A DNA stretch of 32,000 bases from the NCBI RefSeq assembly GCF_000012925.1, contig NC_007517.1, positions 2,010,001-2,042,000 on the forward strand. Reading direction: 5' to 3'. Positions 2,333 through 23,328 of the stretch are shown piece by piece. The stretch is from Geobacter metallireducens GS-15. Lineage in GTDB: Bacteria > Desulfobacterota > Desulfuromonadia > Geobacterales > Geobacteraceae. Below the pieces are notes generated by a model. It saw only the letters and a list, made by a program, of their open reading frames with translations, searched no databases and was not told the origin of the DNA. The position numbers were made by a program, and so were the translations under genes. How positions within the stretch are numbered: position 1 is the first letter of the stretch; each line of letters opens with the position of its first letter.

Positions 2333-3400
2333 ATGGCACGACAACGAACTAGCCCAATGGAAGATATGATTTTGGTCGCCAGCAAACTTCCGTGGTGGGC
2401 GTGCCTGCTACTGGCGCTTGTGTCGTACGCCGTGCTTCACACGATGGCAATGCGCCCTGTAATGCCTGCTACGGTTGTTCCAGGCCAGATGGGCGACGCC
2501 GTAGCCCGGGGACTCATTACGACTCTGGCCATGTTCGGACAGTACGTGATGCCATTCGCTTTTGCACTGGCTGCTCTGTTGTCGGCCGTTACGTCGTCTC
2601 GTCAGAAAAAGCTTTACGATACCGTTGCAGGTCGTGGCGATGTTGCAGCTCTGAATGAAATGGGATGGGATGAGTTTGAAATGTTGGTAGGAGAGCATTT
2701 CCGCCGTCAAGGGTTCCAGGTGACCAGACAGGGAGGAAACGGTCCGGATGGTGGTGTTGATCTGATACTCAAGAATGGCGGCGAAACGTACCTTGTGCAG
2801 TGCAAGCAGTGGAAAGCTTACAAGGTCGGTGTGCAGCCAGTTCGTGAGCTATACGGCGTGATGGCATCGCGAGGTGCCGTTGGAGGTTATGTCGTCACTT
2901 CAGGCAAGTTTACCGACGAGGCGGTTGACTTCGCTCGCGGTTTGAATGTCGAATTGATTGATGGTCGCCAGCTTCGGCAGATTATCGATAATGCTCGTAG
3001 ACCATCGACAGATGTCGTTCGCCACGAGATATTTCCGAAAGCGGTTTCCTCTCCTAACTGTCCCAAGTGCGGAGCTGAAATGAAAAAGCGTGTAGCACGA
3101 CAGGGCAGTAATGCTGGCAGGGAATTCTGGGGGTGCTCAACCTATCCAAAGTGTAAGGGAATTGTCCCCGTTACAATAAATCAGGACACAGACCAGGCAA
3201 AGGTAACAATGCAACCGACTATCCCCCCAGTGGATGCCAGTAAGAAACTATGCCCTCAATGTGGTGAAGAATTAGTTTTGCGGCAATTCCAGAGTGGCCC
3301 TCGAATTGGACAGCAATTCTATGGCTGCCTCACATGCAAAAAAGGGTGGCCTGTCGACACGTTAGCGCAGCATGCAGCGCTTGCCGATGGAGGTAAATAG
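2333..3400 (+). CDS. membrane-anchored Mrr-cat type restriction endonuclease with two topoisomerase-type C4 zinc fingers
   Basis: GAGGAG RBS upstream of the ATG. Two N-terminal hydrophobic helices (LPWWACLLLALVSYAVL; LAMFGQYVMPFAFALAALLSAV). Mrr_cat core GGVDLILKNGGETYLVQCKQWK. CPKCGAEM...FWGCSTYPKCKG and CPQCGEEL...FYGCLTCKKGW zinc ribbons. Confidence 0.85.
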   Translation: MARQRTSPMEDMILVASKLPWWACLLLALVSYAVLHTMAMRPVMPATVVPGQMGDAVARGLITTLAMFGQYVMPFAFALAALLSAVTSSRQKKLYDTVAGRGDVAALNEMGWDEFEMLVGEHFRRQGFQVTRQGGNGPDGGVDLILKNGGETYLVQCKQWKAYKVGVQPVRELYGVMASRGAVGGYVVTSGKFTDEAVDFARGLNVELIDGRQLRQIIDNARRPSTDVVRHEIFPKAVSSPNCPKCGAEMKKRVARQGSNAGREFWGCSTYPKCKGIVPVTINQDTDQAKVTMQPTIPPVDASKKLCPQCGEELVLRQFQSGPRIGQQFYGCLTCKKGWPVDTLAQHAALADGGK

Positions 3401-3518: not shown

Positions 3519-4112
3519 ATGAACCGAGCCGATAAGGCAATAGTCCTATATCAGACTCCGGACGGGTCATCTTCTCTTCAAGTCCATCTCGACCATGACA
3601 CCGTCTGGCTTACACAGAAGCAGATGGCCGAACTGTTTGGAAAGGATGTCAGAACCGTCAACGAACACATCAGGAACATCTTCAGGGAAGGGGAGCTTGA
3701 TGATGCTTCAGTTATCCGGAAATTCCGGATAACTGCCTCAGACGGTAAAAGCTACGATACGGCCCACTACAACCTCGACGTGATAATTTCCGTAGGCTAC
3801 CGGGTGAAGTCACAGCAAGGGACCCGCTTCCGCCAATGGGCGACCAGGGTGCTGCATGACCATATCGTCAAGGGGTACACGCTCAACGAGCAGCGGCTGC
3901 GGGAGGAGAGCGCCAAGTTGCAGGCGATGCAGCAGACGGTGGCATTGCTGGCGCGGACCCTGACCAATCAGGAGCTTGTCAGCGATACCGGCCGGGACGT
4001 GCTGCGGGTCATCGACGATTACGCCTATGCGCTGGCAACCCTTGACCGTTACGACCACGGGACGCTGGCCATCGAAGGAATTACCCGCCAGGCCCAACAG
4101 AGAATTGTATAA
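3519..4112 (+). CDS. RhuM-family protein, C-terminally truncated
   Basis: WLTQKQMAELFGKDVRTVNEHIRNIF...YNLDVIISVGYRVKSQQGTRFRQWATRVL...IVKGYTLNEQRL is the RhuM N-terminal module. At 197 aa it is far shorter than the 300+ aa members I recall, and the stop arises right at a junction with unrelated PAS-coding sequence. Confidence 0.75.
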   Translation: MNRADKAIVLYQTPDGSSSLQVHLDHDTVWLTQKQMAELFGKDVRTVNEHIRNIFREGELDDASVIRKFRITASDGKSYDTAHYNLDVIISVGYRVKSQQGTRFRQWATRVLHDHIVKGYTLNEQRLREESAKLQAMQQTVALLARTLTNQELVSDTGRDVLRVIDDYAYALATLDRYDHGTLAIEGITRQAQQRIV

Positions 4113-4297: not shown

Positions 4298-5650
4298 TTA
4301 TGCACTTACGGCACCTTGGTTCTCCTGCCGGACATCCCTGATCTGCCGTTTCCCGGTGCCGGTCGTGAACCAGCCGGCCCTGTCGAAGGTGATGCTCCCC
4401 AGCGTCAGCCCCCCCTGCCGGAACAGGGGATCGCTTGATTCGGCGCGCACAAGGGCGGCAACGGCCCCTCTGGCGACCTGTTCTTCCTGCCCCTCGCATG
4501 CCTGGAGACAGAGGTTGAGTTGATCCCGGCCGCCGTTATCGGCGATTTCGGCCGTAAAGTTCAGCAGTCCGGGAATCGGAAGCAACGCCTCGTCCAGAGT
4601 TGCCATGGCGATGCTTGCCCCATCCCTGAGCCTCACGGTCGCCCCGATTCGTCCCTGCACCCGCCCGAGACGTTTCAGCACCGTGCCGCAGGGGCAGGAT
4701 TCCGGCATCATCCTCGCCATATCCCCGGTCCGGTACCTCACGAGCGGCATCCCGCTTCGGGTGAGGGTCGTGAAGATCACTTCCCCGAACTCGCCATCGG
4801 CTACCGGCCGGCCTGTGGCCGGGTCGACGATTTCCGTGTACAGGTCGGCCTCGCGCAGATGGTAGCCGTCCCTTGCCTCACACTCCACGCCTCCCCCCAG
4901 CCCGGTTTCCGTCATGCCGTAGTGGGTGAAGACCCGGCAGCCCCAGTGCTGCTTCAGTTCCTCCACGATCGCCGTGGGCACGTAGTCCGTGGAAAGAAGG
5001 ACGCTCTCCACCCAGCCCCGTGGAATCGCCTCGCCACCCTCACCACGGGCCAGAGAAAGAATCTGGGTCGGTATCCCCACCAGGCAAGGGGAAGGGTGGC
5101 GCAGAATCTCCGCCCGTGCCGCTATCGGGTCCCGTACCGGTCCAAAGGCGACCGGCCTCACCCCCAGCCGTGCCAATCCCCGAGCCAGCAGATCACCAAC
5201 GCTGTCGGGTCGTTCGCCGGGCAGAAAGATGATGACGGTTGCCCCGGCAGCGACCATGGTCGCCATGCCGTGATGGAAAAAATCGACCGTCAGCTCCAGG
5301 TCTTCTGCCGTGAAAAATATCCGCTTTGCCTCGCCGCTGGTCCCTGAGGTTTGCAGGGTGACCACCCGTTCGATTTCGTCCTGGGAGGCGCAGAGCATCC
5401 GCATCCCCTGGGTTCGCACATCGTCCGGCGTCGTGAAGGGGAGGCGGCTGAATGCCTGCAGATCCTTCACGTCCCGACCGTCGATTTCGGCAAGAAGGTT
5501 CCGGTAGAAGGGGCTCTTCGTCCGGGCATAGGCGACCACCTCCCGCAGTTTTCGCACCTGATAGGCCTCGAGGTCGCTCCGCGTCAGTGCCTGCGTGCCG
5601 GGCAGAAGCAACTTGTCCCGTATCCACCCCTCCAGCGGCGTCCTATTCAT
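4298..5650 (-). CDS. adenylate-forming PaaK-like (phenylacetate-CoA-ligase family) enzyme, divergent paralog
   Basis: TSGTSGEAKRIFF (AMP motif), THYGMTETG, YRTGD. ATG at 5650 is preferred over 5671 because AAGGGG sits 8 nt upstream. It lies about 50 nt downstream of the C_GCAxxG_C_C gene on the same strand. Confidence 0.85.
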   Translation of the reverse strand: MNRTPLEGWIRDKLLLPGTQALTRSDLEAYQVRKLREVVAYARTKSPFYRNLLAEIDGRDVKDLQAFSRLPFTTPDDVRTQGMRMLCASQDEIERVVTLQTSGTSGEAKRIFFTAEDLELTVDFFHHGMATMVAAGATVIIFLPGERPDSVGDLLARGLARLGVRPVAFGPVRDPIAARAEILRHPSPCLVGIPTQILSLARGEGGEAIPRGWVESVLLSTDYVPTAIVEELKQHWGCRVFTHYGMTETGLGGGVECEARDGYHLREADLYTEIVDPATGRPVADGEFGEVIFTTLTRSGMPLVRYRTGDMARMMPESCPCGTVLKRLGRVQGRIGATVRLRDGASIAMATLDEALLPIPGLLNFTAEIADNGGRDQLNLCLQACEGQEEQVARGAVAALVRAESSDPLFRQGGLTLGSITFDRAGWFTTGTGKRQIRDVRQENQGAVSA

Positions 5651-5699
5651 CGCGGCACCCCTTTCTTCCATGCTTGTTTCACAGGGGGTAACGGAGTGG

Positions 5700-6155
5700 T
5701 CATTGACCTGTACCGCCCACGGTCGCCAGTATCGACTGGAGTTTCTCCATGGTTGCCAGCAGCAGGTCCGAGCAGGCCCGCTTGTCGGGGCTCGCCTTCA
5801 GGATTTCATCGCAGTTGATCCCGCCGTACTCTTTTTCCGCCCTGACCGAGAACCAGTCCCACAATTCAGCCAGCAGCAGGGGAAACTCCGAGTCCTGCAT
5901 CTCCCTCTCCCTCGAACCATCCAGTGCCAGTGACAACGCACATGACGCACCGGTGAGCACCCCGCAGGTGACGCCGGCGTAAAAACCGTTGCAGAGGGCC
6001 GCCATCGACCTGACCAGGTCCGGGTTGTCCCGACCCAGGTCGCGCAACACCAGCTTGACCACGATCTGGCTGCAACAGAGCCCTTGATGCTTCATGAGCA
6101 AAATGTCGAGATAGGGGCCATCGAAGGTGATCGTGTTCACTGACTGGTCGTTCAT
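5700..6155 (-). CDS. C_GCAxxG_C_C family protein
   Basis: LCCSQ...ALCNGFYAGVTCGVLTGASCAL...INCDEIL...RACSDL fits the C_GCAxxG_C_C cysteine pattern. ATG at 6155 has GGAG 9 nt upstream; the longer 186-aa version adds a non-homologous N-terminal extension. Confidence 0.8.
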   Translation of the reverse strand: MNDQSVNTITFDGPYLDILLMKHQGLCCSQIVVKLVLRDLGRDNPDLVRSMAALCNGFYAGVTCGVLTGASCALSLALDGSREREMQDSEFPLLLAELWDWFSVRAEKEYGGINCDEILKASPDKRACSDLLLATMEKLQSILATVGGTGQ

Positions 6156-6331
6156 GGTGTTGTTCTCCAGGTGAATCTTTTTATGGCCTGTTGTCATTCT
6201 TGGGCAGACAAGGCACCTTACAGATATTTGCACACTAAGCGAGATTTTTTTGTTTGACAAGTAAAATAGTAATGTAGTACTAATTTACGCAAATAAGCGT
6301 GAGCTTATGGTGGAGTCGTAGTAACAGGGTG

Positions 6332-6347
6332 CGGCAGATGCTTTGCA
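6332..6347 (+). promoter_or_regulatory. candidate sigma-54 (-24/-12) promoter
   Basis: cGGCAGatgctTTGCA: the GG (6333-34) and GC (6345-46) have the canonical 12-nt register of TGGCAC-N5-TTGCW. The predicted start near 6358 coincides with the beginning of riboswitch copy 1. The -24 hexamer matches only 4/6. Confidence 0.25.
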
Positions 6348-6363
6348 CCGCGAAAATTTAAAA

Positions 6364-6517
6364 CCGTCTCCGAGCTGCGGCGCCTAAAGGGAACATCCCC
6401 AAGGCGGTCCGGCCTATGGGTATCGCTGGAAACGGCGTTGCCTTCCTTATGCAAAGGGGACCCAACGGTGCGGAGGTGTGTCCGCGACGTTCAGGGGCCT
6501 TTCTATCCAGGAGAGCG
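6364..6517 (+). promoter_or_regulatory. Moco/Tuco (molybdenum/tungsten cofactor) riboswitch-like aptamer, copy 1
   Basis: Closing helix TCTCC(6367-71)/GGAGA(6510-14). Hairpin CGCTG-GAAA-CGGCG (6424-6437) has a GNRA tetraloop. CCTAAAG (6383-89) plus TATGG (6415-19) resemble the 11-nt tetraloop receptor. Further hairpin at 6463-6490. It lies upstream of pterin-cofactor enzyme and moeA genes. Confidence 0.65.
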
Positions 6518-6532
6518 CCCCTTTTGTTTTTT
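6493..6532 (+). terminator. intrinsic terminator of riboswitch copy 1
   Basis: AGGGGC-CTTTCT [atcca] GGAGAG-c-GCCCCT stem followed by TTTTGTTTTTT. Confidence 0.6.
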
Positions 6533-6590
6533 CCCTCCGAGGCTCTAGTGCGGGCTGTCGGCGGAAAGCGGGTCTTGAAAAAATTTAAAA

Positions 6591-6743
6591 CCGTCTCCGA
6601 GCCGCGGCGCCTAAAGGGAACATCCCCATGGCGGTCCGGCCTATGGGTATCGCTGGAAACGGCGTTGCCTTCCTTATGCAAAGGGGACCCAGCGACGCGG
6701 AGGTATGTCCGCGACGTTCAGGGGCCTTTCTATCCAGAGAGCG
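6591..6743 (+). promoter_or_regulatory. Moco/Tuco riboswitch-like aptamer, copy 2
   Basis: Same elements as copy 1, shifted by 227 nt. In the 3' hairpin a T-G wobble of copy 1 becomes a C-G pair, so the structure is preserved. Confidence 0.65.
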
Positions 6744-6759
6744 CCCCTGTTGTTTTTTT
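6720..6759 (+). terminator. intrinsic terminator of riboswitch copy 2
   Basis: AGGGGCCTTTCT [atcc] AGAGAGcGCCCCT stem followed by GTTGTTTTTTT. Confidence 0.6.
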
Positions 6760-6834
6760 GCGGGATAGACCGCGTACAACGTGTCCGGTGTGATGATGCC
6801 GGATTACGACAACAAGTGGAGAGAGGAGGAGGAT

Positions 6835-7017
6835 ATGAAATACGAAGAGGTCGGATGTTATCTGGAAATCAATCTGGCAACGGGAACTATCGAACGGGTG
6901 GCGCTGGAACCCGAGGTAATGAGAGAGCATCTGGGACGTCCCGGGGCCTGCATCGGGGAAGCGTGCGAGGGATTCTGCCAGCATTCGCTACAGACCTGCC
7001 TCCGCATAGAAAATTAG
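6835..7017 (+). pseudogene. 5' remnant of an AOR-family gene (60-aa ORF; could alternatively act as a leader peptide)
   Basis: MKYEEVGCYLEINLATGTIERVALEPEVMREHLG parallels the N-terminus of the next gene, MRYAEAGYYLEVDLAKGNIERVATDPRLMELHLG. It has its own GGAGGAGGA RBS. Similarity ends after about 34 codons, followed by unrelated sequence and a stop. Confidence 0.5.
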
Positions 7018-7050
7018 ACACAGGGTGTACATCGGGAAAAAGGAGGAAAA

Positions 7051-9021
7051 ATGAGATACGCAGAGGCAGGATATTATCTGGAAGTCGACCTGGCGAAGGG
7101 GAACATCGAACGGGTCGCAACCGATCCCAGGCTGATGGAGCTCCATCTCGGGGGGTTGGGAACAAGCGTCAAGCTCCACTGGGACAGGGTACCACCGGAA
7201 ACCAGGGCATTCGATCCCGAAAATCTGCTGGTATTCAGTACCGGCCTGCTGAACGGCACGCCGGTGTTCAGCGCCAACCGCACCGTTGTCTCTTTCATTT
7301 CGCCCCAATCGGGCACACTGGCCTATCCGATGATGGGGGGCTTTTTCGCGGCCGAGCTGAAGTATGCCGGCTACGATAAGATCATCTTCAAGAACAAGTC
7401 GCCCGACTGGGTCTACCTGTACGTCTCCAATAACAAGGTGGAGCTGCGTGATGCGTCGCATCTGAAGGGGAGGGGGGCGGTTGAGACCCAGGAACTCATC
7501 CGGAAGGAGCTGAACGATCCGAAAGCCCAGGTGGCTGCCATCGGTATCGCCGGCGAGAACCGGGTCTTTACGGCTTCCATTGAGCAATCCCGCTCAAGCG
7601 CCAGCCGACTCGGCGGCGGCGCGATCATGGGCGACAAGAAGATCAAGGCCGTGGCTGTCCGCGGCACCGGCGATGTCTTCCTTGCCCGGCCGGAAGAGTT
7701 CATGAAAGAGTTGCAGGGGGTGACGGATTATATCAAGTACCGGTGGGCCAACCCCATTAAGGACGTCATGACCATCCTTTCCGGCATCGGGTCGCCCCAG
7801 GAGATGCTCCATACCGATGAAAAATGGCATACGGAGAACTTCGCCTGGGGCAATGCCCGGACCCGGAGAAGGGACTTCTGGACCGAAGAGATCGACGAGT
7901 CATGGTCAAAGTCACAGCATGGCGCAGTAAAGCGTCTGATCAGCTGTTACAACTGTCCGACCCATTGCGGGGCGCTTATTTCCCACAAGGATACCCCACG
8001 GTATATGGCGAAATGCTTCGGCAAGCTCACCTATGCCATGGCGGCTTATGTGGATGACCTTGATTTCTCCTGGAAGATCCTCCAGCGCGCCACCGAGTAC
8101 GGGGTTGATTCCTTCTCGACGCCCCAGATTCTTGCCTTTGCCGTTGAGCTCTATGAAGCCGGCATTCTCACTGACAAGGACTTCAAGGGGTGTCCATCCG
8201 ACAAGGAAGGGAGATTCTTCTGGCTCCTCGACCGGGTCGCACGTCGTGAGGGGATTGGCGATATCCTGGCCGACGGCGTCTATTTCGCAGCCCGCAAGAT
8301 CGGCAACGGTGCGGAAGCCTTCGATCACAACACCATCAAGAAGCACGAGCAGCTCCCGGTCAAGCTCGGGACCCTGGATCCGCTCTATTTCCTCATGTAT
8401 TCCACCAACGAGAAGATCAGCATCACCCAGATGGAAGGACAGTGGCCCCAATCGGCCTTCCCAACCATGGAGCAGCGGGAGGAATTCGTCCGCGACTGGC
8501 CCCAGATTCCCGACGAAAAGTTCAAGCAGATCGTGCTGGACTGGGAACTGAGGGGGGAGAAGTCGATTCCCTACTTCCCGACACCGGACATGTGCTCTGA
8601 AATCGTGGACTGGATGGAGATGATGCACAACATCGATGACGCCGTGGGGATGTGCTGCGGCATGTCGTCCTTCTGCCTGAAGCCGCCCTATCACATCCAC
8701 AACTACCCGAAAATAATCTCCGCGGCTACCGGCCTGGATCTGGACGAGTCAGGGCTGAAGCAGATTGCCAACAGGAGCCGGAACCTGCACCGAGCCTACA
8801 ACAACAGGCTGGGTATCAGGAGGGTTGACGAAAAGCCGCCCGCTGACCACTGGAAGAAACGCTTCCCCGAACTGGAAGAGCAGCTTCTTTCCACCTATTA
8901 CACGTACAAGGGATGGAACCACGACGGCATTCCCACACGGGAAAAGCTGGAAGAACTGGACCTGGGCTATGTCGCCGACGACCTGGAAAAGAGGGGGATC
9001 TTGAAAAATGGCCAAAATTAA
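7051..9021 (+). CDS. tungsten-pterin aldehyde:ferredoxin oxidoreductase family protein, BamB-like subfamily
   Basis: AAGGAGGA RBS. AOR N-terminal domain. [4Fe-4S] motif CYNCPTHCG. 656 aa. The N-terminus MRYAE.GY.LEVDL.KG.IERVATDP and blocks such as EKWHTENFAWGNARTRR match what I remember of Geobacter BamB (class II benzoyl-CoA reductase active subunit); unverified. Confidence 0.9.
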   Translation: MRYAEAGYYLEVDLAKGNIERVATDPRLMELHLGGLGTSVKLHWDRVPPETRAFDPENLLVFSTGLLNGTPVFSANRTVVSFISPQSGTLAYPMMGGFFAAELKYAGYDKIIFKNKSPDWVYLYVSNNKVELRDASHLKGRGAVETQELIRKELNDPKAQVAAIGIAGENRVFTASIEQSRSSASRLGGGAIMGDKKIKAVAVRGTGDVFLARPEEFMKELQGVTDYIKYRWANPIKDVMTILSGIGSPQEMLHTDEKWHTENFAWGNARTRRRDFWTEEIDESWSKSQHGAVKRLISCYNCPTHCGALISHKDTPRYMAKCFGKLTYAMAAYVDDLDFSWKILQRATEYGVDSFSTPQILAFAVELYEAGILTDKDFKGCPSDKEGRFFWLLDRVARREGIGDILADGVYFAARKIGNGAEAFDHNTIKKHEQLPVKLGTLDPLYFLMYSTNEKISITQMEGQWPQSAFPTMEQREEFVRDWPQIPDEKFKQIVLDWELRGEKSIPYFPTPDMCSEIVDWMEMMHNIDDAVGMCCGMSSFCLKPPYHIHNYPKIISAATGLDLDESGLKQIANRSRNLHRAYNNRLGIRRVDEKPPADHWKKRFPELEEQLLSTYYTYKGWNHDGIPTREKLEELDLGYVADDLEKRGILKNGQN

Positions 9022-9544
9022 ACGGAAAGTCAGGACGATCACGGTTGATGCCGACAAGTGCAACGGCTGCCGGACCTGCGAAATCATGTGCTCCGCCTTC
9101 CACGCGGTTCCGCCGTACAGCAGCAACAACCCGGCACGGTCGCGCATCCAGGTCATCACCAACCGGCTCGAGGACATCTGGATGCCGGTCTTTGCCGGCG
9201 AGTACACCGAATCCGAGTGCATGGGGCGGAACAAGTACATCATCGACGGCAAGGAATACAACGAGTGCGACTCCTGCCGTGCCGCCTGCCCCTCACGGGA
9301 TCTGTTCAAGGAACCGGATTCGGGTCTGCCCCTGAAATGCGACATGTGCGACGGCGAAGATGAGCCGGTATGTGTCAAGTGGTGCCTGGTCGATGCCCTA
9401 GTCTACGAGGAGCGGGAAGAGGAAGTGGAAGAGAAGGATATACAAACAACGGTGACCGAGATGGAGGTCGGTCTGGAATCGCTGGTGCGAAAACATGGTT
9501 TCGACAAGGTAATGGATACGGTTGCCCGAATGTCGAAGAAGTGA
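9008..9544 (+). CDS. multi-[4Fe-4S] ferredoxin-like protein, BamC-like partner of the AOR
   Basis: 14-nt overlap with the AOR stop. CNGCRTCEIMC, CDSCRAACP and CDMCDG...CVKWC cluster motifs. Confidence 0.85.
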   Translation: MAKIKRKVRTITVDADKCNGCRTCEIMCSAFHAVPPYSSNNPARSRIQVITNRLEDIWMPVFAGEYTESECMGRNKYIIDGKEYNECDSCRAACPSRDLFKEPDSGLPLKCDMCDGEDEPVCVKWCLVDALVYEEREEEVEEKDIQTTVTEMEVGLESLVRKHGFDKVMDTVARMSKK

Positions 9545-9581
9545 TACTACTTCCGGGCGCAAGAACGGGTAGCATGATACT

Positions 9582-9602
9582 CCCCCCGGCAGGGCCGGGG
9601 GG
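9582..9602 (+). other. GC-only hairpin between the ferredoxin gene and moeA
   Basis: CCCCCCGGC-agg-GCCGGGGGG, a perfect 9-bp stem with no U tract. Confidence 0.3.
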
Positions 9603-9653
9603 ACCACAACATGCGTCCAACATGGAAGCTGAACGGATTTTGGAGAAGGTGAG

Positions 9654-10958
9654 ATGCCAGGCTCAGAGGAAACCCTCCGGATTATTCTTGATAACATAAC
9701 TCCGCTCGGAGTGGAGCGTGTCGACCTGCAGTCCGCCCTGGGGAGGGTCCTGGCCAGGGATGTGGTGGCACCATGGGATTTGCCGCTTTTCGACAATTCG
9801 GCGAGGGACGGATTCGCCCTGAGAAGTGCGGACTGCACGGGCGAGGGGACCACCCTACGGATTACCGGCTTTATTCCGGCCGGATGCAATGTGTCGGAGC
9901 CGGTTCTGGGGGGGTGCGCCGTCCGGATCATGACCGGTGCACCTATCCCCCACAACTGCGATGCGGTGGTGCCGGGGGAGGATACCCTGGAGACAGATGG
10001 CCAGGTGACGGTCATGGCGCCGGTCCGTCGCCGGCAGTATATCCGCTTCCGGGGTGAGGACCTGACAGGCGGTGACCTGGTGCTGACGGAGGGGACGGTC
10101 ATTCAGGCACAGGAAATAGGCTTGCTGGCCTCATTTGGCCAAGCGGTGGTGCCGGTCTACCGGAAGGCGCGGGTGGCGGTGCTCTCCACCGGCGATGAGT
10201 TGATCGAACTGGGAGAGCAGCCGTCAAACGGACGCATCATCAACAGCAATGCCCAGTATCTGGCTGCGGCTCTCAGGGAGATCGGCGCCGAGCCGATTCT
10301 CCTCTGCATCGGTCGTGACAACCGGGAAAGCCTGAAAGAGCAGCTTCAGACGGGACTGAAGGCCGATGCGCTGATCACTACGGCCGGCGTCTCGGCAGGA
10401 GCCCGGGACCTCGTGCGGGATGTGCTGGTTGAGGTGGGGGTCAGGCAGATGCTCGGAAAGATTGAGATGAAGTCGGGCGGACCCAAGGCCTTCGGCATGA
10501 AGGACGGGATCCCGGTCTTCTCCCTTCCCGGCAATCCGCTGTCGACCATGGTCACGTTCGAGGAATTCGTCAGACCGGGGCTGCTCAGGCTGATGGGGCA
10601 TCGCCGGACGGTCAGGCCGAACCTCAAGGCACGGCTGCGGGAAGATATCCGCAAGGAGCCCGGCCGGGTCCATTGCCAGTCGGTCCGGGTAGAGGCGGAG
10701 AACGGCCGCTACATGGCCACCACGGTCGGAAACCACAAGGCGTGCCGGCTGAGTACCATCCAACGGGCCAATGCCATTGTCATCCTCCCCGAAGGACCGT
10801 CGGTGGTGGCGGCAGGGGAAGAGGTGGAGGTACATCTGCTGCGCGGTGACCTGGTCCTGCTGGAAGAACCGAACCTCACTGCCGGTTGCGTACCTGATGA
10901 CCGTGTGTCGGAAGAGGGGGAGACCTTCGAGAGAAGGGTGCGGGTGGCAACCCGTTAG
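9654..10958 (+). CDS. moeA: molybdopterin molybdenum/tungsten transferase MoeA
   Basis: LPLFDNSARDGFAL, IMTGAPIP, VLSTGDEL and TTAGVSAG are the standard MoeA domain order. 434 aa. Confidence 0.9.
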   Translation: MPGSEETLRIILDNITPLGVERVDLQSALGRVLARDVVAPWDLPLFDNSARDGFALRSADCTGEGTTLRITGFIPAGCNVSEPVLGGCAVRIMTGAPIPHNCDAVVPGEDTLETDGQVTVMAPVRRRQYIRFRGEDLTGGDLVLTEGTVIQAQEIGLLASFGQAVVPVYRKARVAVLSTGDELIELGEQPSNGRIINSNAQYLAAALREIGAEPILLCIGRDNRESLKEQLQTGLKADALITTAGVSAGARDLVRDVLVEVGVRQMLGKIEMKSGGPKAFGMKDGIPVFSLPGNPLSTMVTFEEFVRPGLLRLMGHRRTVRPNLKARLREDIRKEPGRVHCQSVRVEAENGRYMATTVGNHKACRLSTIQRANAIVILPEGPSVVAAGEEVEVHLLRGDLVLLEEPNLTAGCVPDDRVSEEGETFERRVRVATR

Positions 10959-10999
10959 GGAAGGGGTAGATATCATGCGACAGGATGGGGGACCGTCAG

Positions 11000-11482
11000 A
11001 TGAACGCGTATGAGCAGATCAGTTTGCAGATACCCGGGGAGGTCGAGCGTCTCATGGAGGACCGCTCGATCCTGAGGGAGGATGCGCAGAAGGTCATCCT
11101 TCATGCCGAGACCACCGGCAGGAAGCTGCTCAACTCTGCCACCGGCCATTTTCTCGCCTTCCATCGCCCCAAAGCGGTCACCTACTGGGCGGAGTATGTC
11201 CGGACCGGTGATGACTATCGGCTGGTCACCGCGTATTCCCACCGGATGGCGATGAAGTCCAGCGGGAGCACGCAGGAGTGGGTAAAATCCGGCAGCGGCA
11301 GCGAATGGCTCTGCAATCAGTGCCAGGCCCCCCTGGAGGAGCAAACTGTCAGGCTCCAGTACATGCAGTCCATATTTCCCATCACTCTTCCGGCCTGCTC
11401 CGGGTGCGGCTTCATCCTTGTCACTGAGGAGTTGGCAACCGGGAAGCTGGCCGCGGCAGAACAGGCGCTGGAAGACAAGTAA
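11000..11482 (+). CDS. small CxxC...CxxC (zinc-ribbon) protein of unknown function
   Basis: Alternative start at 10985; ATG 11000 has GGGGGA 9 nt upstream. CNQCQAPL...CSGCGFILV ribbon at the C-terminus. It sits between moeA and the methyltransferase with 23-41 nt gaps. The architecture fits what I recall as the DVU_1557-type 'redox protein' family; unverified. Confidence 0.65.
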   Translation: MNAYEQISLQIPGEVERLMEDRSILREDAQKVILHAETTGRKLLNSATGHFLAFHRPKAVTYWAEYVRTGDDYRLVTAYSHRMAMKSSGSTQEWVKSGSGSEWLCNQCQAPLEEQTVRLQYMQSIFPITLPACSGCGFILVTEELATGKLAAAEQALEDK

Positions 11483-11505
11483 CTTTCCGGCGGCACGGTG
11501 AACCG

Positions 11506-12192
11506 ATGAACGGTACCGCACTCAACTGGTTGGAGCTCTGTCGCACCGTGGGTCCGTGCCTACGGCCGGGTGGGACCGCGCTTACAGACCGGGCACTGGA
11601 GGTCTGCAACCTTTCCGCCGATTCCCTGATTGCCGATGTCGGCTGCGGTGCCGGCGGAACCCTGTATCACCTGGAACAAATCGGTTTCCGCCGCCTGGTG
11701 GGGCTCGACCCGTCGGAGACCCTTCTCGGGGATGCCGCCCCCCGCCTCGAAACGGCCCGCCTTATCCGGGGGGAGGCTGCAACGATCCCCCTCCGGAGCG
11801 CCACCGTCGATCTCCTTCTGTGTGAATGCGTCCTTTCCGTCCTCCCTGGCCGGTCGGCTCCCCTCCGGGAGTTTGCGCGGGTCGTGAAGGACGGCGGATA
11901 TCTGGTAGTGAGCGACGTTTTCAGCACGGCTGGAGACGAGGCCACAGGACAGGCCGGCGGGCTCCTCACCCGCAAGGAACTCCTTGCCGCGGTGGCCGGT
12001 AATGGCTTCACCCTCCTTCGGTGGGAAACCCACGACCGTTTGCTGAAGGAATTCGCGGTCCGCATGATCCTGGCCGGCGAATGCCTGCCGGATGCGTGGA
12101 AGGGTGGTACGGAGAGGAAAGGGGAGGCGGCCCGTGGGGGCCTCGGCTATTTCCTCATGGTGGCCCGAAAGGCTGAAGACCCGCTTCCGTAA
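11506..12192 (+). CDS. class I SAM-dependent methyltransferase
   Basis: Motif I IADVGCGAGGT and post-I LVGLDPS; acidic/hydrophobic motif DLLLCECVL. Confidence 0.85.
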   Translation: MNGTALNWLELCRTVGPCLRPGGTALTDRALEVCNLSADSLIADVGCGAGGTLYHLEQIGFRRLVGLDPSETLLGDAAPRLETARLIRGEAATIPLRSATVDLLLCECVLSVLPGRSAPLREFARVVKDGGYLVVSDVFSTAGDEATGQAGGLLTRKELLAAVAGNGFTLLRWETHDRLLKEFAVRMILAGECLPDAWKGGTERKGEAARGGLGYFLMVARKAEDPLP

Positions 12193-12210
12193 CAGATAAA
12201 GGATAGTGTC

Positions 12211-13608
12211 ATGGAAACAGTGAATCTGGGTGAAACCGAAAGCATCTGCCCCGTCTGCCTGAAAAGGATAGCGGCGACACGACAAGTGCTGGGTGACGAG
12301 GTCTTCCAGGTCAAGGAGTGCGACGAGCACGGTTCGTTCAGGACCCTTATCTGGCGCGGAAAGCCGTCACTGGCCGAGTGGCGGAGACCGAAGCCGCCCG
12401 TCCACCCCGAGCTCTGCTACGGGACCGTCGAGCAGGGGTGCCCGTTCGACTGCGGCCTCTGCAGTGCCCATGCACAGATGCCCTGTTCGGTGCTACTGGA
12501 GGTGACTGACCGGTGCAACCTGCAGTGCGCCGTCTGTTTTGCCGATTCCGGCCGAAAGGATTCCGTGGATACCTCCCTGGACAGGATCACCTGGCTGCTA
12601 GAACGGGCCATGGCAGCGGCTGGGCCGTGCAATCTCCAGTTGTCCGGCGGAGAGCCCACACTGCGGGACGATCTGCCGGAGATCGTGGCAGCGGCGCGGC
12701 GGATCGGTTTTTCCTTTATCCAGCTCAATACCAACGGCCTGCGCCTTGCCGCCGACGGGAATTATGCCGCCCGGTTGCGGTCGGCGGGGCTTTCGGCAGT
12801 CTTTCTCCAGTTCGACGGGGTCGACGACGGCATCTACCGCACCTTGAGGGGACGTCCGCTTCTGGAGCAGAAGCTCCGGGCCGTCAGGCATGCCGGCGAG
12901 GCCGGCCTCGGCGTGATCCTGGTCCCGACCATCGTGAGCGGAGTGAACAGCCATGCCGTCGGCGCCATCGTGCGGCAGGCCCTTCAATTGGCCCCAATCG
13001 TGCGGGGGATTCACTTCCAGCCTGTCAGCTATTTTGGCCGTTTCCCTGAGCAGGGCTGCGGCAACCGCTTCACTTTACCCGAACTGATGGGGTGTCTCGA
13101 AGAGCAGACCGACGGACTGCTCAGGCTGGCCGATTTCTCTCCTCCCGGTGGGGAACATGCCCACTGTTCCTTTCACGCCACATATCTCTACTCGGCCGAC
13201 GGCGGGCTGCGCTCCCTCGGGGCGATGGGGGGCGATTCCTGCTGCACGACCGACTGTGGCAGCGGGGGAATCAGGAGGACCGTGGATACCGTGTCGCGCC
13301 GCTGGAAGCTTCCCTCAGCCGCACCATGCTGCGGCAATCCCAGAGAATCGGAGCAGACCGATTGTTGTGAGTCGGGCAGATCAAACCCGGTCCGGGTCGA
13401 AGGGGCCATTGATCTGGATAGCTTTCTCCGGGATGTCGCCACCAGGAGTTTAACCATCTCTGCCATGGCATTTCAAGATGCGGAAAACCTGGATCTGGAG
13501 CGCCTCAGGGGGTGCTGCATATCGGTTGTGTCTCCCGATGGCCTGCTGGTGCCATTCTGTGCCTATAACCTGACCAGCAGGGACGGAAGGAGCCTTTACC
13601 GCCGATGA
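12211..13608 (+). CDS. radical SAM enzyme with N-terminal zinc ribbon and extra Cys motif (pterin-methylase/Tes-like architecture)
   Basis: CNLQCAVC (Cx3Cx2C) preceded by CPVCLKRI...CDEHG and CPFDCGLCSAH. GGEPTL SAM-binding glycine motif. Cys-rich C-terminal part CCTTDCGSGG...CCG...CC. Confidence 0.9.
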   Translation: METVNLGETESICPVCLKRIAATRQVLGDEVFQVKECDEHGSFRTLIWRGKPSLAEWRRPKPPVHPELCYGTVEQGCPFDCGLCSAHAQMPCSVLLEVTDRCNLQCAVCFADSGRKDSVDTSLDRITWLLERAMAAAGPCNLQLSGGEPTLRDDLPEIVAAARRIGFSFIQLNTNGLRLAADGNYAARLRSAGLSAVFLQFDGVDDGIYRTLRGRPLLEQKLRAVRHAGEAGLGVILVPTIVSGVNSHAVGAIVRQALQLAPIVRGIHFQPVSYFGRFPEQGCGNRFTLPELMGCLEEQTDGLLRLADFSPPGGEHAHCSFHATYLYSADGGLRSLGAMGGDSCCTTDCGSGGIRRTVDTVSRRWKLPSAAPCCGNPRESEQTDCCESGRSNPVRVEGAIDLDSFLRDVATRSLTISAMAFQDAENLDLERLRGCCISVVSPDGLLVPFCAYNLTSRDGRSLYRR

Positions 13609-13766
13609 TCTGGCACGGCGGCAATCACTTCATGATTTACGTCCCATAAGATATATTATGTCAAGTACGCGAAATAAATTTTTGTCCTGTGCCCTTGAAA
13701 GATTCAGAAGACTATGCGACCCTGCAAAAGCCAATATCAATATCATTTAATCCAGAGGGGTAAGTC

Positions 13767-14027
13767 ATGCTTAAGGAGGATGTTGGGACCGAGATTTACA
13801 AGACTTGGAGCAATGCACAACGACGCGAGGAAATCGCCAAGCTGGTTCAGGGCTACAGGTCGGGTCTGCCGGCTTCCATTATGTGTAAGATTTCAGATAG
13901 TATTGCAGGCAACCGGAAACGGGCTCGGAAATATCTCCATGAAATGCTGACACCTGAAGAACGACAGATAGCAGTGGACAGTGAAACCGGAGAAATGATG
14001 GTTTTTGTTCGAGGATATATGCTGTAG
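13767..14027 (+). CDS. hypothetical small protein (86 aa) in an AT-rich islet
   Basis: GAGGGG RBS 7 nt upstream of the ATG; no recognisable motif; local GC is visibly lower than the flanks. Confidence 0.4.
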   Translation: MLKEDVGTEIYKTWSNAQRREEIAKLVQGYRSGLPASIMCKISDSIAGNRKRARKYLHEMLTPEERQIAVDSETGEMMVFVRGYML

Positions 14028-14122
14028 CTTCGGTCTTATGCCACTTCCATGCAAATCGCACCAGGCCTGGTGCTTCTTCCTCACCTTTGATTCTTCCGCG
14101 ATATAGGGAACGATCTGGTCGG

Positions 14123-14152
14123 GCAGCGGAGGGTCGAGAATCCCTCCGCTGC
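14123..14152. repeat. perfect 11-bp inverted repeat (GC-rich hairpin)
   Basis: GCAGCGGAGGG-tcgagaat-CCCTCCGCTGC; no U tract on either strand. Confidence 0.5.
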
Positions 14153-14282
14153 GAAAGACTTGATGAATTTCCTCGTACCCCCCTATTCCCTCGTAGTTGT
14201 TGATGACATCGCCACAACCATAGGGCTGATCTTGCCCCTGACCTACCTGGGTATTTGAAGATTAATGTCTGCCTCTCCCATT

Positions 14283-14310
14283 TTGACAGAAGCTAACTGG
14301 TTGCTATTAT
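14283..14310 (+). promoter_or_regulatory. candidate sigma-70 promoter of the ACIII-like operon
   Basis: TTGACA-N16-TATTAT, about 60 nt upstream of the ATG at 14370 (RBS AGGTGGA). Confidence 0.4.
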
Positions 14311-14369
14311 TAGTTGAACCGTAACGTTCCGCCGTCACCGCAACTGCCCGCTCCCGTTCAGGTGGATGC

Positions 14370-14895: not shown

Positions 14896-17088
14896 ATGAA
14901 ACGGAGAACGTTTTTACAGCTTGGTACAGTAATAGCTGCCGGCGCCGTACTGGATGGATGCCGGTCAAAAAATGAGCAGCTCATCCCCTATCTCATTCCG
15001 CCGGATGAGGGGATAACTCCCGGCAAAGGTACTTATTATGCCAGCTCCTGCAATGCATGTCCTGCCGGCTGCGGCATCCTAGTCCGAGTGTCCGAGGGAC
15101 GGGCAAAGAAGATTGAGGGAAACCCGGAACATCCCATCAATAGAGGGAAACTCTGCGCCCGGGGGCAGGCCGTTGTTCAGGAACTTTACCATCCCGACCG
15201 CGTGCCTCATCCCCTCAAACGGAATGGCCCCCGTGGTTCCGGTGCCTTCACGCGGATTTCCTGGCAAGAGGGTATTGGGCTGCTCACGGATAGGCTCAAA
15301 GCTTTGCAGCGGGAACAGAGCACTAATGGCCTGGCTCTGCTGACGCCTCATTTGCGGGGTACCCTGGCGGAACTCACGGGTCGCTTCATGCGCACGTTCG
15401 GCTCGACCAACCACGTCTCCTATGAGTTGCTCACCCCCGACTTGCTTCGGATTGCTGCCCGTCGTAGCTTCGGGCAGCCTACCCTTCCCTATTACGACAT
15501 CGCCGAAACGCGCTATCTGCTCAGTTTCGGGGCTGATTTTGTGGACTCTCACCTGTCGCCGGTCAAGTATGGTTCCGCCTTTGGTGAGATGCGCCAGGGC
15601 CGTGACACGGTTCGCGGGCATTTCACCTATGTGGGGGGGCGCATGTCACTGACTGCCGCCTCGGCCGACCGCTGGATGCCTGCCAAGCCGGGGAGCGAAG
15701 GAACCCTGGCCCTTGGCATTGCACGCCTGATTCTGGCCGAGTCGCTTTACGACAGCGGAGCACTCGCGATGAACGGGCTTGAGGCAAAGAAACTGCTGGC
15801 CGCGCTGGACAGATACGATCTCCCCCGAGTGGCGCAGCTCTCCGGTCTGCCGCAAGGAGCGATCGCTGAGGTGGCACGGGAGTTTGCCTCGACCCGTCCC
15901 GCACTCGCTCTGGCCGGGGAGATGGTTGCCTTTCAGAGCAACGGCCCTGAATCGGTCCGTGCGGTCCACCTGCTCAATCTCCTGGTGGGAAGCCTGAATC
16001 GGCCGGGTGGGATCTACCCCGATGCAGGGTCCCCATCCGGACCGGAAAATTCCTTTGCCGAACTCATCGCTCTTATCGAGACGATGCGCGGCGGCCACGT
16101 GAAGGTGGCCATGATTCATGGCGATCCGCTCTATTCCGTTCCTCCGGCGACTGGGTTTCACGACGCACTGGCAAAGGTTCCGTTCATCGTCAGCTTTTCC
16201 TCGCTGCTCGACGATACCGCCCTGCACGCGGACTTGGTCCTTCCGGACCACGCCGCCCTGGAAAGCTGGGGAGACGTGATACCGGTCGCCGGCACCCGGG
16301 AACCGCTGGTGGGGCTTATGCAGCCGGTTGTGGAGCCTTTGTTCGATACCCGCCAGTTCCCCGAAGTGTTGCTGGCTACTGCCCATGAGCTGGGAGGCCG
16401 GATGGCTGCAGCATTACCGGACGAGTCGTACCTGGAGTTGCTGAAGGGAGCGGTCAGGAAGCAAGCCGGATTTGGGGCCGGCGTGGATTTCGAAGCGGCG
16501 TGGGTCGACCTGCTTCAGCACGGAGGGCTCTTTAAAACCAAGAGTGTCCAGCCCACCGGTTATCGATGGTCCTCGGACGCACCACCGCCATTGCCCGAGG
16601 ACCCGGACTTTGCCGGGGACCAGAAGACGTACCCATTCCATCTGATTGCCTACCCTGCCACCGCCTTTTATGACGGCCGCGGTGCACCGTATCCCTGGCT
16701 GCAGCAACTCCCGGACCCGATGACCACCGTCGTTTGGGGAAGTTGGGTGGAGATCAACCCCGAGACCGCAGCCGAGCACGGGATCGGCTTTGGCGATCTG
16801 GTGGAGGTCTCATCGCCCCAGGGCACACTCCGTCTGCCGGCCGTCGTTTATCCCGGAATCCGTCCGGACATGGTGGCGATCCCCTTGGGGCAGGGGCATC
16901 GGGGGATGGGACGCTATGCCCAGGGGCAAGGGGTAAATCCTCTCGCGCTGGTGGCACGGCAAGGGACGAAACAGCAGCCTGCCTGGAATGCTACCCGGGT
17001 GCGGATAACCAGAATCTCAGGGAATGGGGAACTGGTTACGGCAGGACATCCCCAGGGAAGCCTCCGGAGCGAGTTGGTCGAGATATAG
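14896..17088 (+). CDS. Tat-exported molybdopterin-oxidoreductase-family subunit (ActB1-like) with intact FS0 Cys motif
   Basis: Twin-arginine signal MKRRTFLQLG ending in the lipobox-like LDGC. CNACPAGCG-x27-C [4Fe-4S] motif. 730 aa with MopB fold text. Confidence 0.85.
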   Translation: MKRRTFLQLGTVIAAGAVLDGCRSKNEQLIPYLIPPDEGITPGKGTYYASSCNACPAGCGILVRVSEGRAKKIEGNPEHPINRGKLCARGQAVVQELYHPDRVPHPLKRNGPRGSGAFTRISWQEGIGLLTDRLKALQREQSTNGLALLTPHLRGTLAELTGRFMRTFGSTNHVSYELLTPDLLRIAARRSFGQPTLPYYDIAETRYLLSFGADFVDSHLSPVKYGSAFGEMRQGRDTVRGHFTYVGGRMSLTAASADRWMPAKPGSEGTLALGIARLILAESLYDSGALAMNGLEAKKLLAALDRYDLPRVAQLSGLPQGAIAEVAREFASTRPALALAGEMVAFQSNGPESVRAVHLLNLLVGSLNRPGGIYPDAGSPSGPENSFAELIALIETMRGGHVKVAMIHGDPLYSVPPATGFHDALAKVPFIVSFSSLLDDTALHADLVLPDHAALESWGDVIPVAGTREPLVGLMQPVVEPLFDTRQFPEVLLATAHELGGRMAAALPDESYLELLKGAVRKQAGFGAGVDFEAAWVDLLQHGGLFKTKSVQPTGYRWSSDAPPPLPEDPDFAGDQKTYPFHLIAYPATAFYDGRGAPYPWLQQLPDPMTTVVWGSWVEINPETAAEHGIGFGDLVEVSSPQGTLRLPAVVYPGIRPDMVAIPLGQGHRGMGRYAQGQGVNPLALVARQGTKQQPAWNATRVRITRISGNGELVTAGHPQGSLRSELVEI

Positions 17089-22013: not shown

Positions 22014-23315
22014 TCAGAGCTTGCGCCGGTCAATGACCCGCTGGGCTTTCCCTTCATGGCGGGGAATACTGTTCGGCTCCACAAGCTTGACGGTGGCGCC
22101 GACGCCGAGCCTCGAATCGATCCGCTTCTCGACCATTTCGAGGAACGCACGCTGGCGCTTCATCTCGTCGAAGAAGATGTTTTCGATGACCTCGATCTGG
22201 ATCTCCAGGGTATCGAGGGTCCCCTTGCGGTCAACGATGATCTGGTAGTGGGGTTGGCACCCTTCGATGGCAAAGAGAACCTCCTCGATCTGGGACGGGA
22301 AGACGTTGACCCCCTTGATGATGAGCATATCATCGCTGCGCCCCATGGTCTTCTTCATGCGGACCATGGTCCTGCCACAGGCGCAGGGGGAGTAATCGAG
22401 GCACGTGATGTCCCGGGTCCGGTAACGGATCATGGGGAACGCCTCCTTGGTGAGGGTGGTCAGCACCAGTTCACCGACGCTCCCCGGCGGCAACACCTCG
22501 CCGGTATCCGGATCGATGATCTCGGGGATGAAGGCATCCTCGAAGATGTGCATGCCGCACTTGTGTTCACAGTCGCCGGCAATGCCGGGGCCAATAACTT
22601 CCGAGAGACCGTAATTGTCGGTAGCACTGATGAAAAGTCTGCTTTCGATTTCCTTCCGCATCGCTTCTGACCATGGCTCACCGCCGAAGAGCCCCACCTT
22701 GAGCGACAGGGTCTTGGGATCGATTCCCATCTTTTCCATCCGGTCCGCGATGGTGATGGCATAGCTGGGGGTGCTGACCAGCGCCGTGGTCTTGTAGTCC
22801 TGCATGATCATGATCTGCTTTTCGGTGTTCCCGGAGCTCATGGGAATCACCGACGCCCCGATGGTTTCAGTCCCGTAATGGAGGCCAAAAGCGCCCGTAA
22901 AGAGACCGTAACCAAAGGCGACCTGAACCACGTCGTCGAGGGTGACGCCGGCGGCGGTCATGAAGCGGGCCACCAGATTCGACCAGACCTTGATGTCGTG
23001 CTTGGTGTAACCGACCACCGTGGGCTTGCCGGTGGTTCCCGACGAGGAGTGGATCCGCACGACCTCCCGGAGCGGCACGGCGAACATCCCGTAGGGATAG
23101 TTCAGGCGTAAGTCCTCCTTGGTAGTGAAAGGGAGTTTCCTGAGGTCGTCGAGGGACTGGATGTCCTCAGGGACGATACCAAGCTCGTTGAACTTGTTCC
23201 GGTAGCAGGTGACATTCTTGTATACGCGGTTGATGGTTGCCTGGAGCCGTTCCAGCTGAAGCTGCTGCAGCTCCTCGCGCGGCATGCATTCGTATGTTGG
23301 TTCCCAGATCTGCAT
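22014..23315 (-). CDS. paaK: phenylacetate-CoA ligase family protein
   Basis: [19 protein letters not shown] and YRTRD. Trimmed to ATG 23315 (MQIWEPTY..., GAGG 8 nt upstream), giving 433 aa. Confidence 0.9.
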
Positions 23316-23328
23316 ACGGTGACCTCGC

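Follow-up and report, generated by a model that had tools for sequence, protein, structure and literature searches.

The MOP-type molybdenum aldehyde oxidoreductase (MOP) of Desulfovibrio has been studied for about 40 years. In a recent history of this enzyme the only electron partner named is a putative one, flavodoxin; MOP itself has no flavin domain, and no operon or gene cluster is mentioned (PMC10223205). A gene system with the radical S-adenosylmethionine (SAM) protein TrsS is already catalogued by NCBIfam as the TrsS / DVU_1551-DVU_1558 system (NF045645, NF045646, NF045663, NF045665-NF045667, NF045669). In the literature we found no mention of DVU_1555-1557 and no description of this cluster beside the aldehyde oxidoreductase. 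Here we describe the copy of this cassette in Geobacter metallireducens GS-15, located in a stretch of 32,000 nucleotides (contig NC_007517.1, positions 2,010,001 to 2,042,000; hereafter the window). New is the Geobacter variant: its partner is BamB-2/BamC-2/MoeA, it is under the control of tandem riboswitches, its adaptor is a fusion, its ligase and C-GCAxxG-C-C genes are displaced as a pair, and it is induced on benzoate.

Several described systems resemble parts of this locus. The closest characterised enzyme to TrsS is GDGT-MAS (Tes, MJ0619; structures 7TOL and 7TOM). Lloyd et al. 2022 did not corroborate the annotation of MJ0619 as a pterin methylase and identified it as an enzyme for the C-C coupling of lipids that has a hydrophobic tunnel and forms a carbon-to-cluster-sulfur intermediate (PMC9433317). 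The BamBCDEFGHI system of G. metallireducens is related through the enzyme upstream of the cassette, as BamB-2 shares 66% identity with BamB and BamC-2 shares 64% with BamC, and the two are co-induced during growth on benzoate. Unlike in that system, no BamDEFGHI electron-bifurcating module follows BamB-2/BamC-2; MoeA and the TrsS cassette stand there instead. The MoaA-like family TIGR04317, an NCBIfam maturase of tungsten-cofactor oxidoreductases, also ties a radical SAM gene to a tungsten enzyme of the aldehyde:ferredoxin oxidoreductase (AOR) family. It forms however another subfamily, which lacks the rubredoxin domain and the N-terminal cluster domain and is not accompanied by the set of methyltransferase, ligase and Zn-ribbon protein, and TrsS is not a member (50.3 bits, cut-off 380).

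The trio is the Geobacter copy of the TrsS core

Directly downstream of moeA three open reading frames (ORFs) of 165, 228 and 465 aa follow each other on the same strand, and the gaps from moeA through the trio are 26, 23 and 18 nt (coordinates in Table 1), confirming the tight spacing described in the earlier note. From published locus tags they are Gmet_1805-1807. All three products passed the curated NCBIfam cut-offs, as DVU_1557-family Zn-ribbon protein, DVU_1556-family methyltransferase and radical SAM protein TrsS, and with the products of the divergent ligase and C-GCAxxG-C-C genes all four partner families of TrsS (DVU_1556, DVU_1557, DVU_1555, DVU_1553) are present at 4298-12192, each over its cut-off. 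We show that the trio represents, in G. metallireducens, the core of the TrsS / DVU_1551-DVU_1558 system; as there, the five window proteins are encoded beside a pyranopterin enzyme of molybdenum or tungsten (Mo/W). The trio is not the self-contained unit that it had been taken for, since together with the divergent pair it belongs to a named system of five to ten genes, while its placement beside Mo/W-enzyme genes was borne out in most of the 120 loci surveyed below. TrsS is present as a single copy in the 4.01-Mb genome.

The NF045646 model covered residues 8-464 of TrsS, and each of the radical SAM motifs quoted earlier was found in the protein. Among 117 TrsS sequences the rubredoxin-type site (C13x2C16x20C37x2H40), the ligands of the N-terminal cluster (C77/C81/C84/H87) and the radical SAM triad (C102x3C106x2C109) were 100% conserved. 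Candidate ligands of a C-terminal cluster are C319, C435 and C450, which were absent from the list in the earlier note and were 99-100% conserved. The Cys-rich C-terminal tail that it did list exists, but among its cysteines only the first pair is conserved (C344 in 78% and C345 in 74% of the sequences); C349, C373/374 and C385/386 were conserved in at most 21% and fall in low-confidence loops of the AlphaFold2 (AF2) model.

TrsS has been listed among the selenoprotein families, with Haft & Tolstoy 2025 (mSystems) given as the source (PMC13188914). At the selenocysteine (Sec) position the window protein has neither Sec nor Cys but Gly314, whereas Cys was found in 75 of the 117 homologues. Gly314 does not bar membership, because the family name '(seleno)protein' admits non-Sec forms. 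In a metagenome-assembled genome labelled uncultured Desulfobacterium sp. the trsS gene (L089:9977-11350; L numbers denote surveyed loci) has an in-frame TGA within 'PPG-U-ENAL-C'. This is likely selenocysteine, four residues before the invariant Cys of the C-terminal cluster, and read by eye it corresponds to window position 314. In L081 a second in-frame TGA, at residue 389, is ambiguous.

Profile searches of the radical SAM protein against characterised members, as the earlier note had proposed, gave TrsS as family identity and GDGT-MAS as closest characterised enzyme. GDGT-MAS was also the only close relative in sequence and fold searches of the PDB (7TOL, 270 bits). The AF2 model of TrsS (mean predicted local distance difference test score, pLDDT, 86.9) matched 7TOM over the full length with a template modelling (TM) score of 0.81 at 32% identity. 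The two proteins share the four-domain architecture with the CX2CX20CX2H rubredoxin site, the Cys3His N-terminal cluster, the CX3CX2C cluster and the C-terminal cluster, and TrsS keeps all metal ligands of GDGT-MAS. TrsS is nevertheless not a member of the Tes / GDGT-MAS family NF045702, scoring 313.8 bits against a cut-off of 450 and matching only profile positions 2-309 of 486. Residues 312-405 of TrsS and 331-445 of GDGT-MAS could not be aligned by sequence, and part of this stretch is a low-confidence Cys-rich loop in TrsS. In contrast to GDGT-MAS, TrsS occurs in anaerobic bacteria, which have no archaeal lipids, and in a wholly different genomic context.

The resemblance raises the question of lipid chemistry like that of Tes, with TrsS coupling or modifying hydrophobic acyl or alkyl tails, the ligase activating fatty acids and the methyltransferase adding branches. 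The closest characterised enzyme and the 314 bits to the Tes model speak for such a role, but the score lies under the cut-off, TrsS residues 312-405 did not align with a stretch in the C-terminal part of GDGT-MAS, no lipid-biosynthesis genes were conserved nearby in the neighbourhood survey and the tight coupling to MOP would be left unexplained. We therefore consider lipid chemistry very unlikely.

The same comparison removes the assignment of the radical SAM protein to a pterin-methylating lineage. This premise is gone because MJ0619 has been reassigned as a lipid synthase (PMC9433317). For the Class D radical SAM pterin methylases ('HMPT dimethyltransferase', MJ0619 type) the activity of the founding member was not corroborated (PMC9433317). 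The earlier note had counted clustering with a characterised family unrelated to pterins as evidence against itself, and the full-length match to GDGT-MAS is in part such a case. The Pfam 'HMPTM' zinc-ribbon and 'pterin dimethyltransferase' labels still attached to the TrsS family are an obsolete legacy and an annotation trap.

Gene neighbourhoods and exchange of the Mo/W partner

For the neighbourhood survey we used 39 TrsS loci from a 401-genome phylum sample and 80 from species-representative genomes of many phyla, and tallies were made over 120 loci. ORFs were scored with hidden Markov models (HMMs) built from clusters, and representatives were identified by Pfam and NCBIfam. The loci belonged to Thermodesulfobacteriota, Bacillota, Synergistota, Chloroflexota, Actinomycetota, Acidobacteriota, Campylobacterota and Pseudomonadota. 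On one strand the canonical order starts with a MoCF_biosynth-domain protein (not always present), an enzyme of the xanthine oxidase (XO) family, the NF045663 oxidoreductase, the DVU_1557 Zn-ribbon protein and the methyltransferase, followed by the C-GCAxxG-C-C protein, TrsS, the AMP ligase, XdhC and a MocA-like nucleotidyltransferase with an HD domain (MocA-HD). This order is kept across at least eight phyla. The AMP ligase, directly downstream of TrsS, was found in 105 of the 120 loci; elsewhere in the neighbourhood the methyltransferase was present in 104, the big oxidoreductase in 102, the C-GCAxxG-C-C protein in 97, the Zn-ribbon protein in 86, the XO-family enzyme (a MOP-type molybdenum aldehyde oxidoreductase) in 83, MocA-HD in 59 and XdhC in 53. 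The XO-family neighbour is the enzyme known from crystal structures; for the L034 protein the scores were 1896 bits against D. desulfuricans MOD (1DGJ) and 1445 bits against D. gigas MOP (1SIJ/1VLB). No Mo/W gene was seen in 29 loci, many of which end at contig ends.

In most of the 120 loci the cassette thus adjoins a pyranopterin enzyme together with matching cofactor-maturation genes, and the TrsS cassette is genuinely and generally linked to Mo/W enzymes. It occurs widely among anaerobes, gut Bacillota and sulfate reducers included, and is almost inseparable from the MOP aldehyde oxidoreductase of Desulfovibrio. MOP orthologues (at least 60% identity) occurred in 30 of the 401 phylum genomes, and 29 of these 30 also had TrsS, while 11 of 40 TrsS-positive genomes had no MOP orthologue; MOP therefore leans on the cassette more than the reverse. 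The sole MOP orthologue without TrsS (L130, G360:C40:10696-30000) lies in a decayed locus, in which XO-gene fragments are followed by AMP-ligase fragments. In a library of representatives at 50% identity, TrsS was fused in different lineages to the ligase (P0128, P0131, P0143, P0169), to the methyltransferase (P0124, P0165), to DUF5714/MbdU and to MocA-HD.

A gene order kept across at least eight phyla is not compatible with a chance juxtaposition of unrelated genes. The survey also bears on a maturase of peptides that are synthesised by ribosomes and modified after translation (RiPPs), with a nearby precursor. The radical SAM core is weakly similar to SkfB- and PqqE-type maturases (50-70 bits), but Pfam detected no SPASM domain, peptide-maturase models of SPASM and other types scored far under their cut-offs, and no small ORF, precursor-like or other, was conserved in the neighbourhoods except those of the Zn-ribbon and C-GCAxxG-C-C proteins. 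Both chance adjacency and a RiPP maturase role are ruled out by the survey and can be regarded as effectively refuted.

The identity of the Mo/W partner varies. A BamB-like AOR enzyme stands beside the cassette in the window and, in varying gene orders, in L012, L016, L048 and L050. An enzyme of the dimethyl sulfoxide reductase (DMSOR) family was found at two loci, in L049 as an XdhB-like FAD subunit and a [2Fe-2S]x2::MopB chimera with MoeA, and in L023 as a MopB enzyme with AsrA/AsrB-like subunits, the latter being an independent switch. Each swapped partner comes with its own electron-transfer subunits. In the TrsS tree (FastTree, SH-like support, 117 sequences) the window protein groups with L012, L016, L048, L050 and L049 in one clade with a support of 100, nested among XO-linked TrsS, and MOP was therefore replaced once. 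We show that in this clade MOP and the big oxidoreductase were swapped once for BamB-2/BamC-2, and XdhC/MocA for MoeA. The Geobacter variant thus demonstrates that the cassette can trade MOP for a tungsten BamB paralogue. Genomes G152 and G286 carry MOP, oxidoreductase and Zn-ribbon protein at a second locus, and TrsS and ligase with an AOR enzyme. About 2.4 kb downstream of the ligase that ends the cassette in L049 lies a gene for an ArsS-type radical SAM (seleno)protein (L049:15141-16253; TIGR04167, 415 bits).

Compared with the canonical DVU_1551-DVU_1558 system the window therefore has BamB-2/BamC-2 and MoeA where the former has MOP, the big oxidoreductase, XdhC and MocA-HD. Its oxidoreductase is reduced to a C-domain fused to the Zn-ribbon, its ligase and C-GCAxxG-C-C genes form a divergent operon, tandem molybdenum/tungsten cofactor (Moco/Wco) riboswitches control the cassette operon, and its TrsS has Gly314 as opposed to Cys in 75 of 117 sequences or Sec in L089.

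A well-supported reduced clade (L124, L127, L031, L042, L047 and others) has a CCG protein, the methyltransferase, TrsS, sometimes in two copies, and the ligase, but no Mo/W gene. Its two annotated Dehalococcoidia members also have a transporter of the major facilitator superfamily (MFS), and in L124 HdrA-, FrhB- and DHODB-like proteins are encoded upstream. Nine genomes with the core but no Mo/W gene beside it lacked any MOP orthologue. The Dehalococcoidia locus L124 contains two tandem TrsS paralogues (L124:9989-12769; 645 and 597 bits), followed by the ligase and the MFS transporter.

The small protein Gmet_1805, the first of the trio, shows what remained of the big oxidoreductase. It had been described as a Zn-ribbon protein, and residues 107-165 do form a DVU_1557 / Pfam DUF7479 (PF24292) ribbon with C109xxC112...C137xxC140 matching the family consensus, but a second domain had been missed. 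Residues 4-91, which contain no Cys, scored 95.7 bits to the extreme C-terminus (positions 671-758) of NF045663, a flavo-FeS 'pyridine nucleotide-disulfide oxidoreductase/dicluster-binding protein' of about 760 aa. In the window's clade the big oxidoreductase survives solely as these last approximately 90 residues, and where MOP and the big oxidoreductase are gone this C-terminal part stays beside the Zn-ribbon. The two are fused in the window, L048, L050 and L023, and encoded by separate genes with a 4-nt overlap in L016 and L049; the small C-domain and the Zn-ribbon were retained in four of five BamB-linked loci and in both MopB swaps. In the AF2 model of Gmet_1805 (pLDDT 89; predicted TM score, pTM, 0.82) the two domains pack against each other, and a PDB fold search with this model gave no match at an E of 0.001 or better. 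We propose that Gmet_1805 may act as a docking and electron-transfer adaptor.

Gmet_1806 is a member of NF045667 with a class I SAM-binding motif, and D44, G46, G48, G50, D68 and D137 are conserved. Its SAM loop (D44, G46, G48, G50) and E107-C108 were conserved in 91-99% of 97 homologues. Metalloid methylation like that of ArsM was considered and rejected for Gmet_1806, as the ArsM models (17-40 bits) and ArsM in the PDB (23.6 bits, marginal) reflect generic class I similarity.

Benzoate induction and the possible role of the cassette

Expression data were taken from the microarray of Butler et al. 2007, comparing growth on benzoate and acetate. Gmet_1800-1805 and Gmet_1807 were all up on benzoate together with bamB-2 (Table 1), and we therefore concluded that the trio and the divergent pair are expressed and co-induced; Gmet_1806 was not in the listed genes of the array.

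Our tentative first choice among the possible roles is a TrsS-centred module for small-molecule chemistry, consisting of ligase, methyltransferase, radical SAM enzyme and thiol protein, with an interchangeable redox partner of very low potential. TrsS, with its rubredoxin-type site and three [4Fe-4S] sites, would cleave SAM and abstract hydrogen from an unactivated carbon of a small molecule. The ligase would adenylate the carboxylate of that molecule or of a partner, and the methyltransferase, with its conserved active-site Cys, would add a methyl group. The Mo/W enzyme would not be the target of this chemistry but would give or take electrons, and the conserved adaptor of oxidoreductase C-domain and Zn-ribbon would wire it to the TrsS module. 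In Geobacter the whole set is expressed with bamB-2 on benzoate, behind the tandem W/Mo-cofactor riboswitches. We favour this module because the partner swaps preserve the docking and Zn-ribbon unit and bring the electron-transfer subunits of the partner, because the core exists without Mo/W genes, because the pterin precedent is gone and because MOP carries an ordinary molybdopterin cytosine dinucleotide (MCD).

Several points weigh against the module with a redox partner. Radical SAM enzymes normally use a general flavodoxin or ferredoxin, and we know of none that has a Mo/W enzyme as its dedicated reductant. The very negative potentials ascribed to all three partner types come from general knowledge. 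The biochemical and genetic roles of the cassette proteins are predictions from sequence. A pure redox-partner model does not account for the TrsS::MocA-HD fusions, and the ligase and the benzoate induction could equally be consistent with BamB-2 acting on the product of the module.

The last point leads to the main rival, in which ligase, methyltransferase, TrsS and Mo/W enzyme act in sequence on one small molecule such as an aromatic aldehyde or acid. The acid would come from MOP and be converted to its CoA or AMP ester by the ligase; modification by TrsS and the methyltransferase would follow, and in Geobacter the aryl-CoA would be dearomatised by BamB-2. In vitro, aromatic aldehydes are oxidised by MOP. 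The ligase is PaaK-like (125-153 bits to phenylacetate-CoA ligase models), BamB-2 scored 1017 bits to the benzoyl-CoA reductase subunit BamB and is encoded among the benzoate-induced genes Gmet_1800-1805 and Gmet_1807, and in L124 and L127 an MFS transporter follows the ligase, all of which would suit such a pathway. The same slot is however filled by three unrelated families whose chemistries differ (XO, AOR, DMSOR), none of the three is present in the reduced clade, and no beta-oxidation or ring-cleavage genes were conserved in the surveyed clusters. To our knowledge most of the hosts, among them Desulfovibrio, Acetobacterium and Blautia, are not known to degrade aromatic rings. A single pathway on one substrate is possible but in our judgement unlikely.

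The MocA-HD fusions are among the points for tailoring or maturation of the cofactor, in which the cassette would modify the pyranopterin or the active site of the neighbouring Mo/W enzyme, for instance by methylating a carbon, providing a special ligand or delivering metal or sulfido. All three pyranopterin families are accompanied by the cassette, and the cofactor is their only obvious shared feature, MOP orthologues are nearly never found without TrsS (29 of 30 genomes), and many proteins of the set are rich in Cys or Sec. Moco/Wco riboswitches control the window operon, and another radical SAM family, TIGR04317, already bears the annotation of a maturase for tungsten-cofactor oxidoreductases. 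Against it, we know of no place for a PaaK-type ligase in Moco chemistry, and the MCD-Mo, W-bisMPT and bis-PGD sites differ greatly. The covalently modified pterin proposed in the earlier note is not supported, as native D. gigas MOP at 1.28 Å has a well-defined, ordinary MCD (PMC10223205). The precedent of a pterin methylase has gone with the reassignment of MJ0619 (PMC9433317), and the core of methyltransferase, TrsS and ligase, which would do the tailoring, is also found without a nearby Mo/W gene, and nine such genomes lack any MOP orthologue.

We keep a maturation role as a doubtful alternative because of the TrsS::MocA-HD fusions and the near-obligate co-occurrence of MOP and TrsS. In that form, equally doubtful, the cassette would install or maintain something common to the XO-, AOR- and DMSOR-family sites, a transient change at the pterin or metal site or a delivery of metal or chalcogen, which would be hidden from crystals of the finished enzymes. 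If true, this would be a general and previously unrecognised maturation route for Mo/W enzymes of anaerobes. As a possible product we also considered an unusual sixth ligand on the tungsten of BamB and rejected it; the literature gives water, which likewise speaks against tailoring.

G. metallireducens is amenable to genetics and the inducing condition, benzoate, is known; the variant thus gives a setting in which to learn what a Tes-like radical SAM enzyme does outside lipid synthesis and what ties it to Mo/W enzymes.

The Geobacter locus and its surroundings

The features of the locus are collected in Table 1. The start of bamC-2 overlaps the end of bamB-2 by 14 nt, and the two Moco/Wco aptamers lie upstream of bamB-2 through trsS, on the same strand. 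Terminator-like matches between 4000 and 14500 were at chance level, with 12 found and 8.8 expected from shuffled sequence.

Table 1. Features of the TrsS locus of G. metallireducens in window coordinates; the last column gives the fold change up on benzoate.
Feature	Coordinates	Strand	Evidence	Fold change
DVU_1553-family AMP-dependent (PaaK / F390-synthetase-like) ligase, Gmet_1800	4298..5671	-	NF045666 483 bits, cut-off 300	5.6
DVU_1555-family C-GCAxxG-C-C protein, Gmet_1801	5700..6260	-	NF045669 141.6 bits, cut-off 103	5.0
Moco/Wco riboswitch aptamer copy 1	6356..6475	+	RF01055 63.6 bits, gathering score 36	
Moco/Wco riboswitch aptamer copy 2	6583..6702	+	RF01055 68.1 bits	
BamB-2, tungsten AOR-family paralogue of class II benzoyl-CoA reductase, Gmet_1802	7051..9021	+	1017 bits to BamB 4Z3W; Pfam AFOR_N, AFOR_C	23.6
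BamC-2, iron-sulfur ferredoxin-like partner of BamB-2, Gmet_1803	9008..9544	+	Fer4 matches; named in PMC1924859	15.7
MoeA-3, Mo/W insertion enzyme, Gmet_1804	9654..10958	+	MoeA_N, MoCF_biosynth, MoeA_C; named in PMC2700814	4.5
NF045663 C-domain + DVU_1557-family Zn-ribbon fusion, Gmet_1805	10985..11482	+	NF045645 91.3 bits, cut-off 60	2.3
DVU_1556-family class I SAM methyltransferase, Gmet_1806	11506..12192	+	NF045667 192.9 bits, cut-off 155	
Radical SAM protein TrsS, Cys form, Gmet_1807	12211..13608	+	NF045646 622.5 bits, cut-off 490	2.6

The ligase and C-GCAxxG-C-C genes, two further members of the cassette, are divergent from the riboswitch region. The C-GCAxxG-C-C protein is 42% identical to the in-cassette copy of a related genome (L016:8523-8975), and C264, C326 and C328 of the ligase were 100% conserved. 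Two PaaK-like paralogues of the AMP ligase are encoded at 22014-23417 (-) and 28526-29833 (-), with scores of 339 and 273 bits against the HMM of the cassette ligase.

Just upstream of the divergent ligase lie genes for an Mrr-type restriction endonuclease with Zn-ribbons (2333-3400, +) and a RhuM-family protein (3519-4112, +). Gmet_1784-1815 has been published as a region without G. sulfurreducens orthologues, near tRNA-Gly and an integrase. The cassette may be seated on an acquired island, because the Mrr-type endonuclease and RhuM neighbours fit this description.

After TrsS follows an AT-richer spacer (13609-14369) with an 86-aa ORF (13767-14027) without a Pfam family. Ahead of the next operon lies a strong match to a sigma-70-like promoter (14283-14310). 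This operon opens 1.3 kb past TrsS with a gene for a 730-aa MopB-family protein (14896-17088, +), the only other pyranopterin-family gene in the window, which we treated as an unrelated neighbour, although the automatic count of the 120 loci tallied it as 'MopB'.

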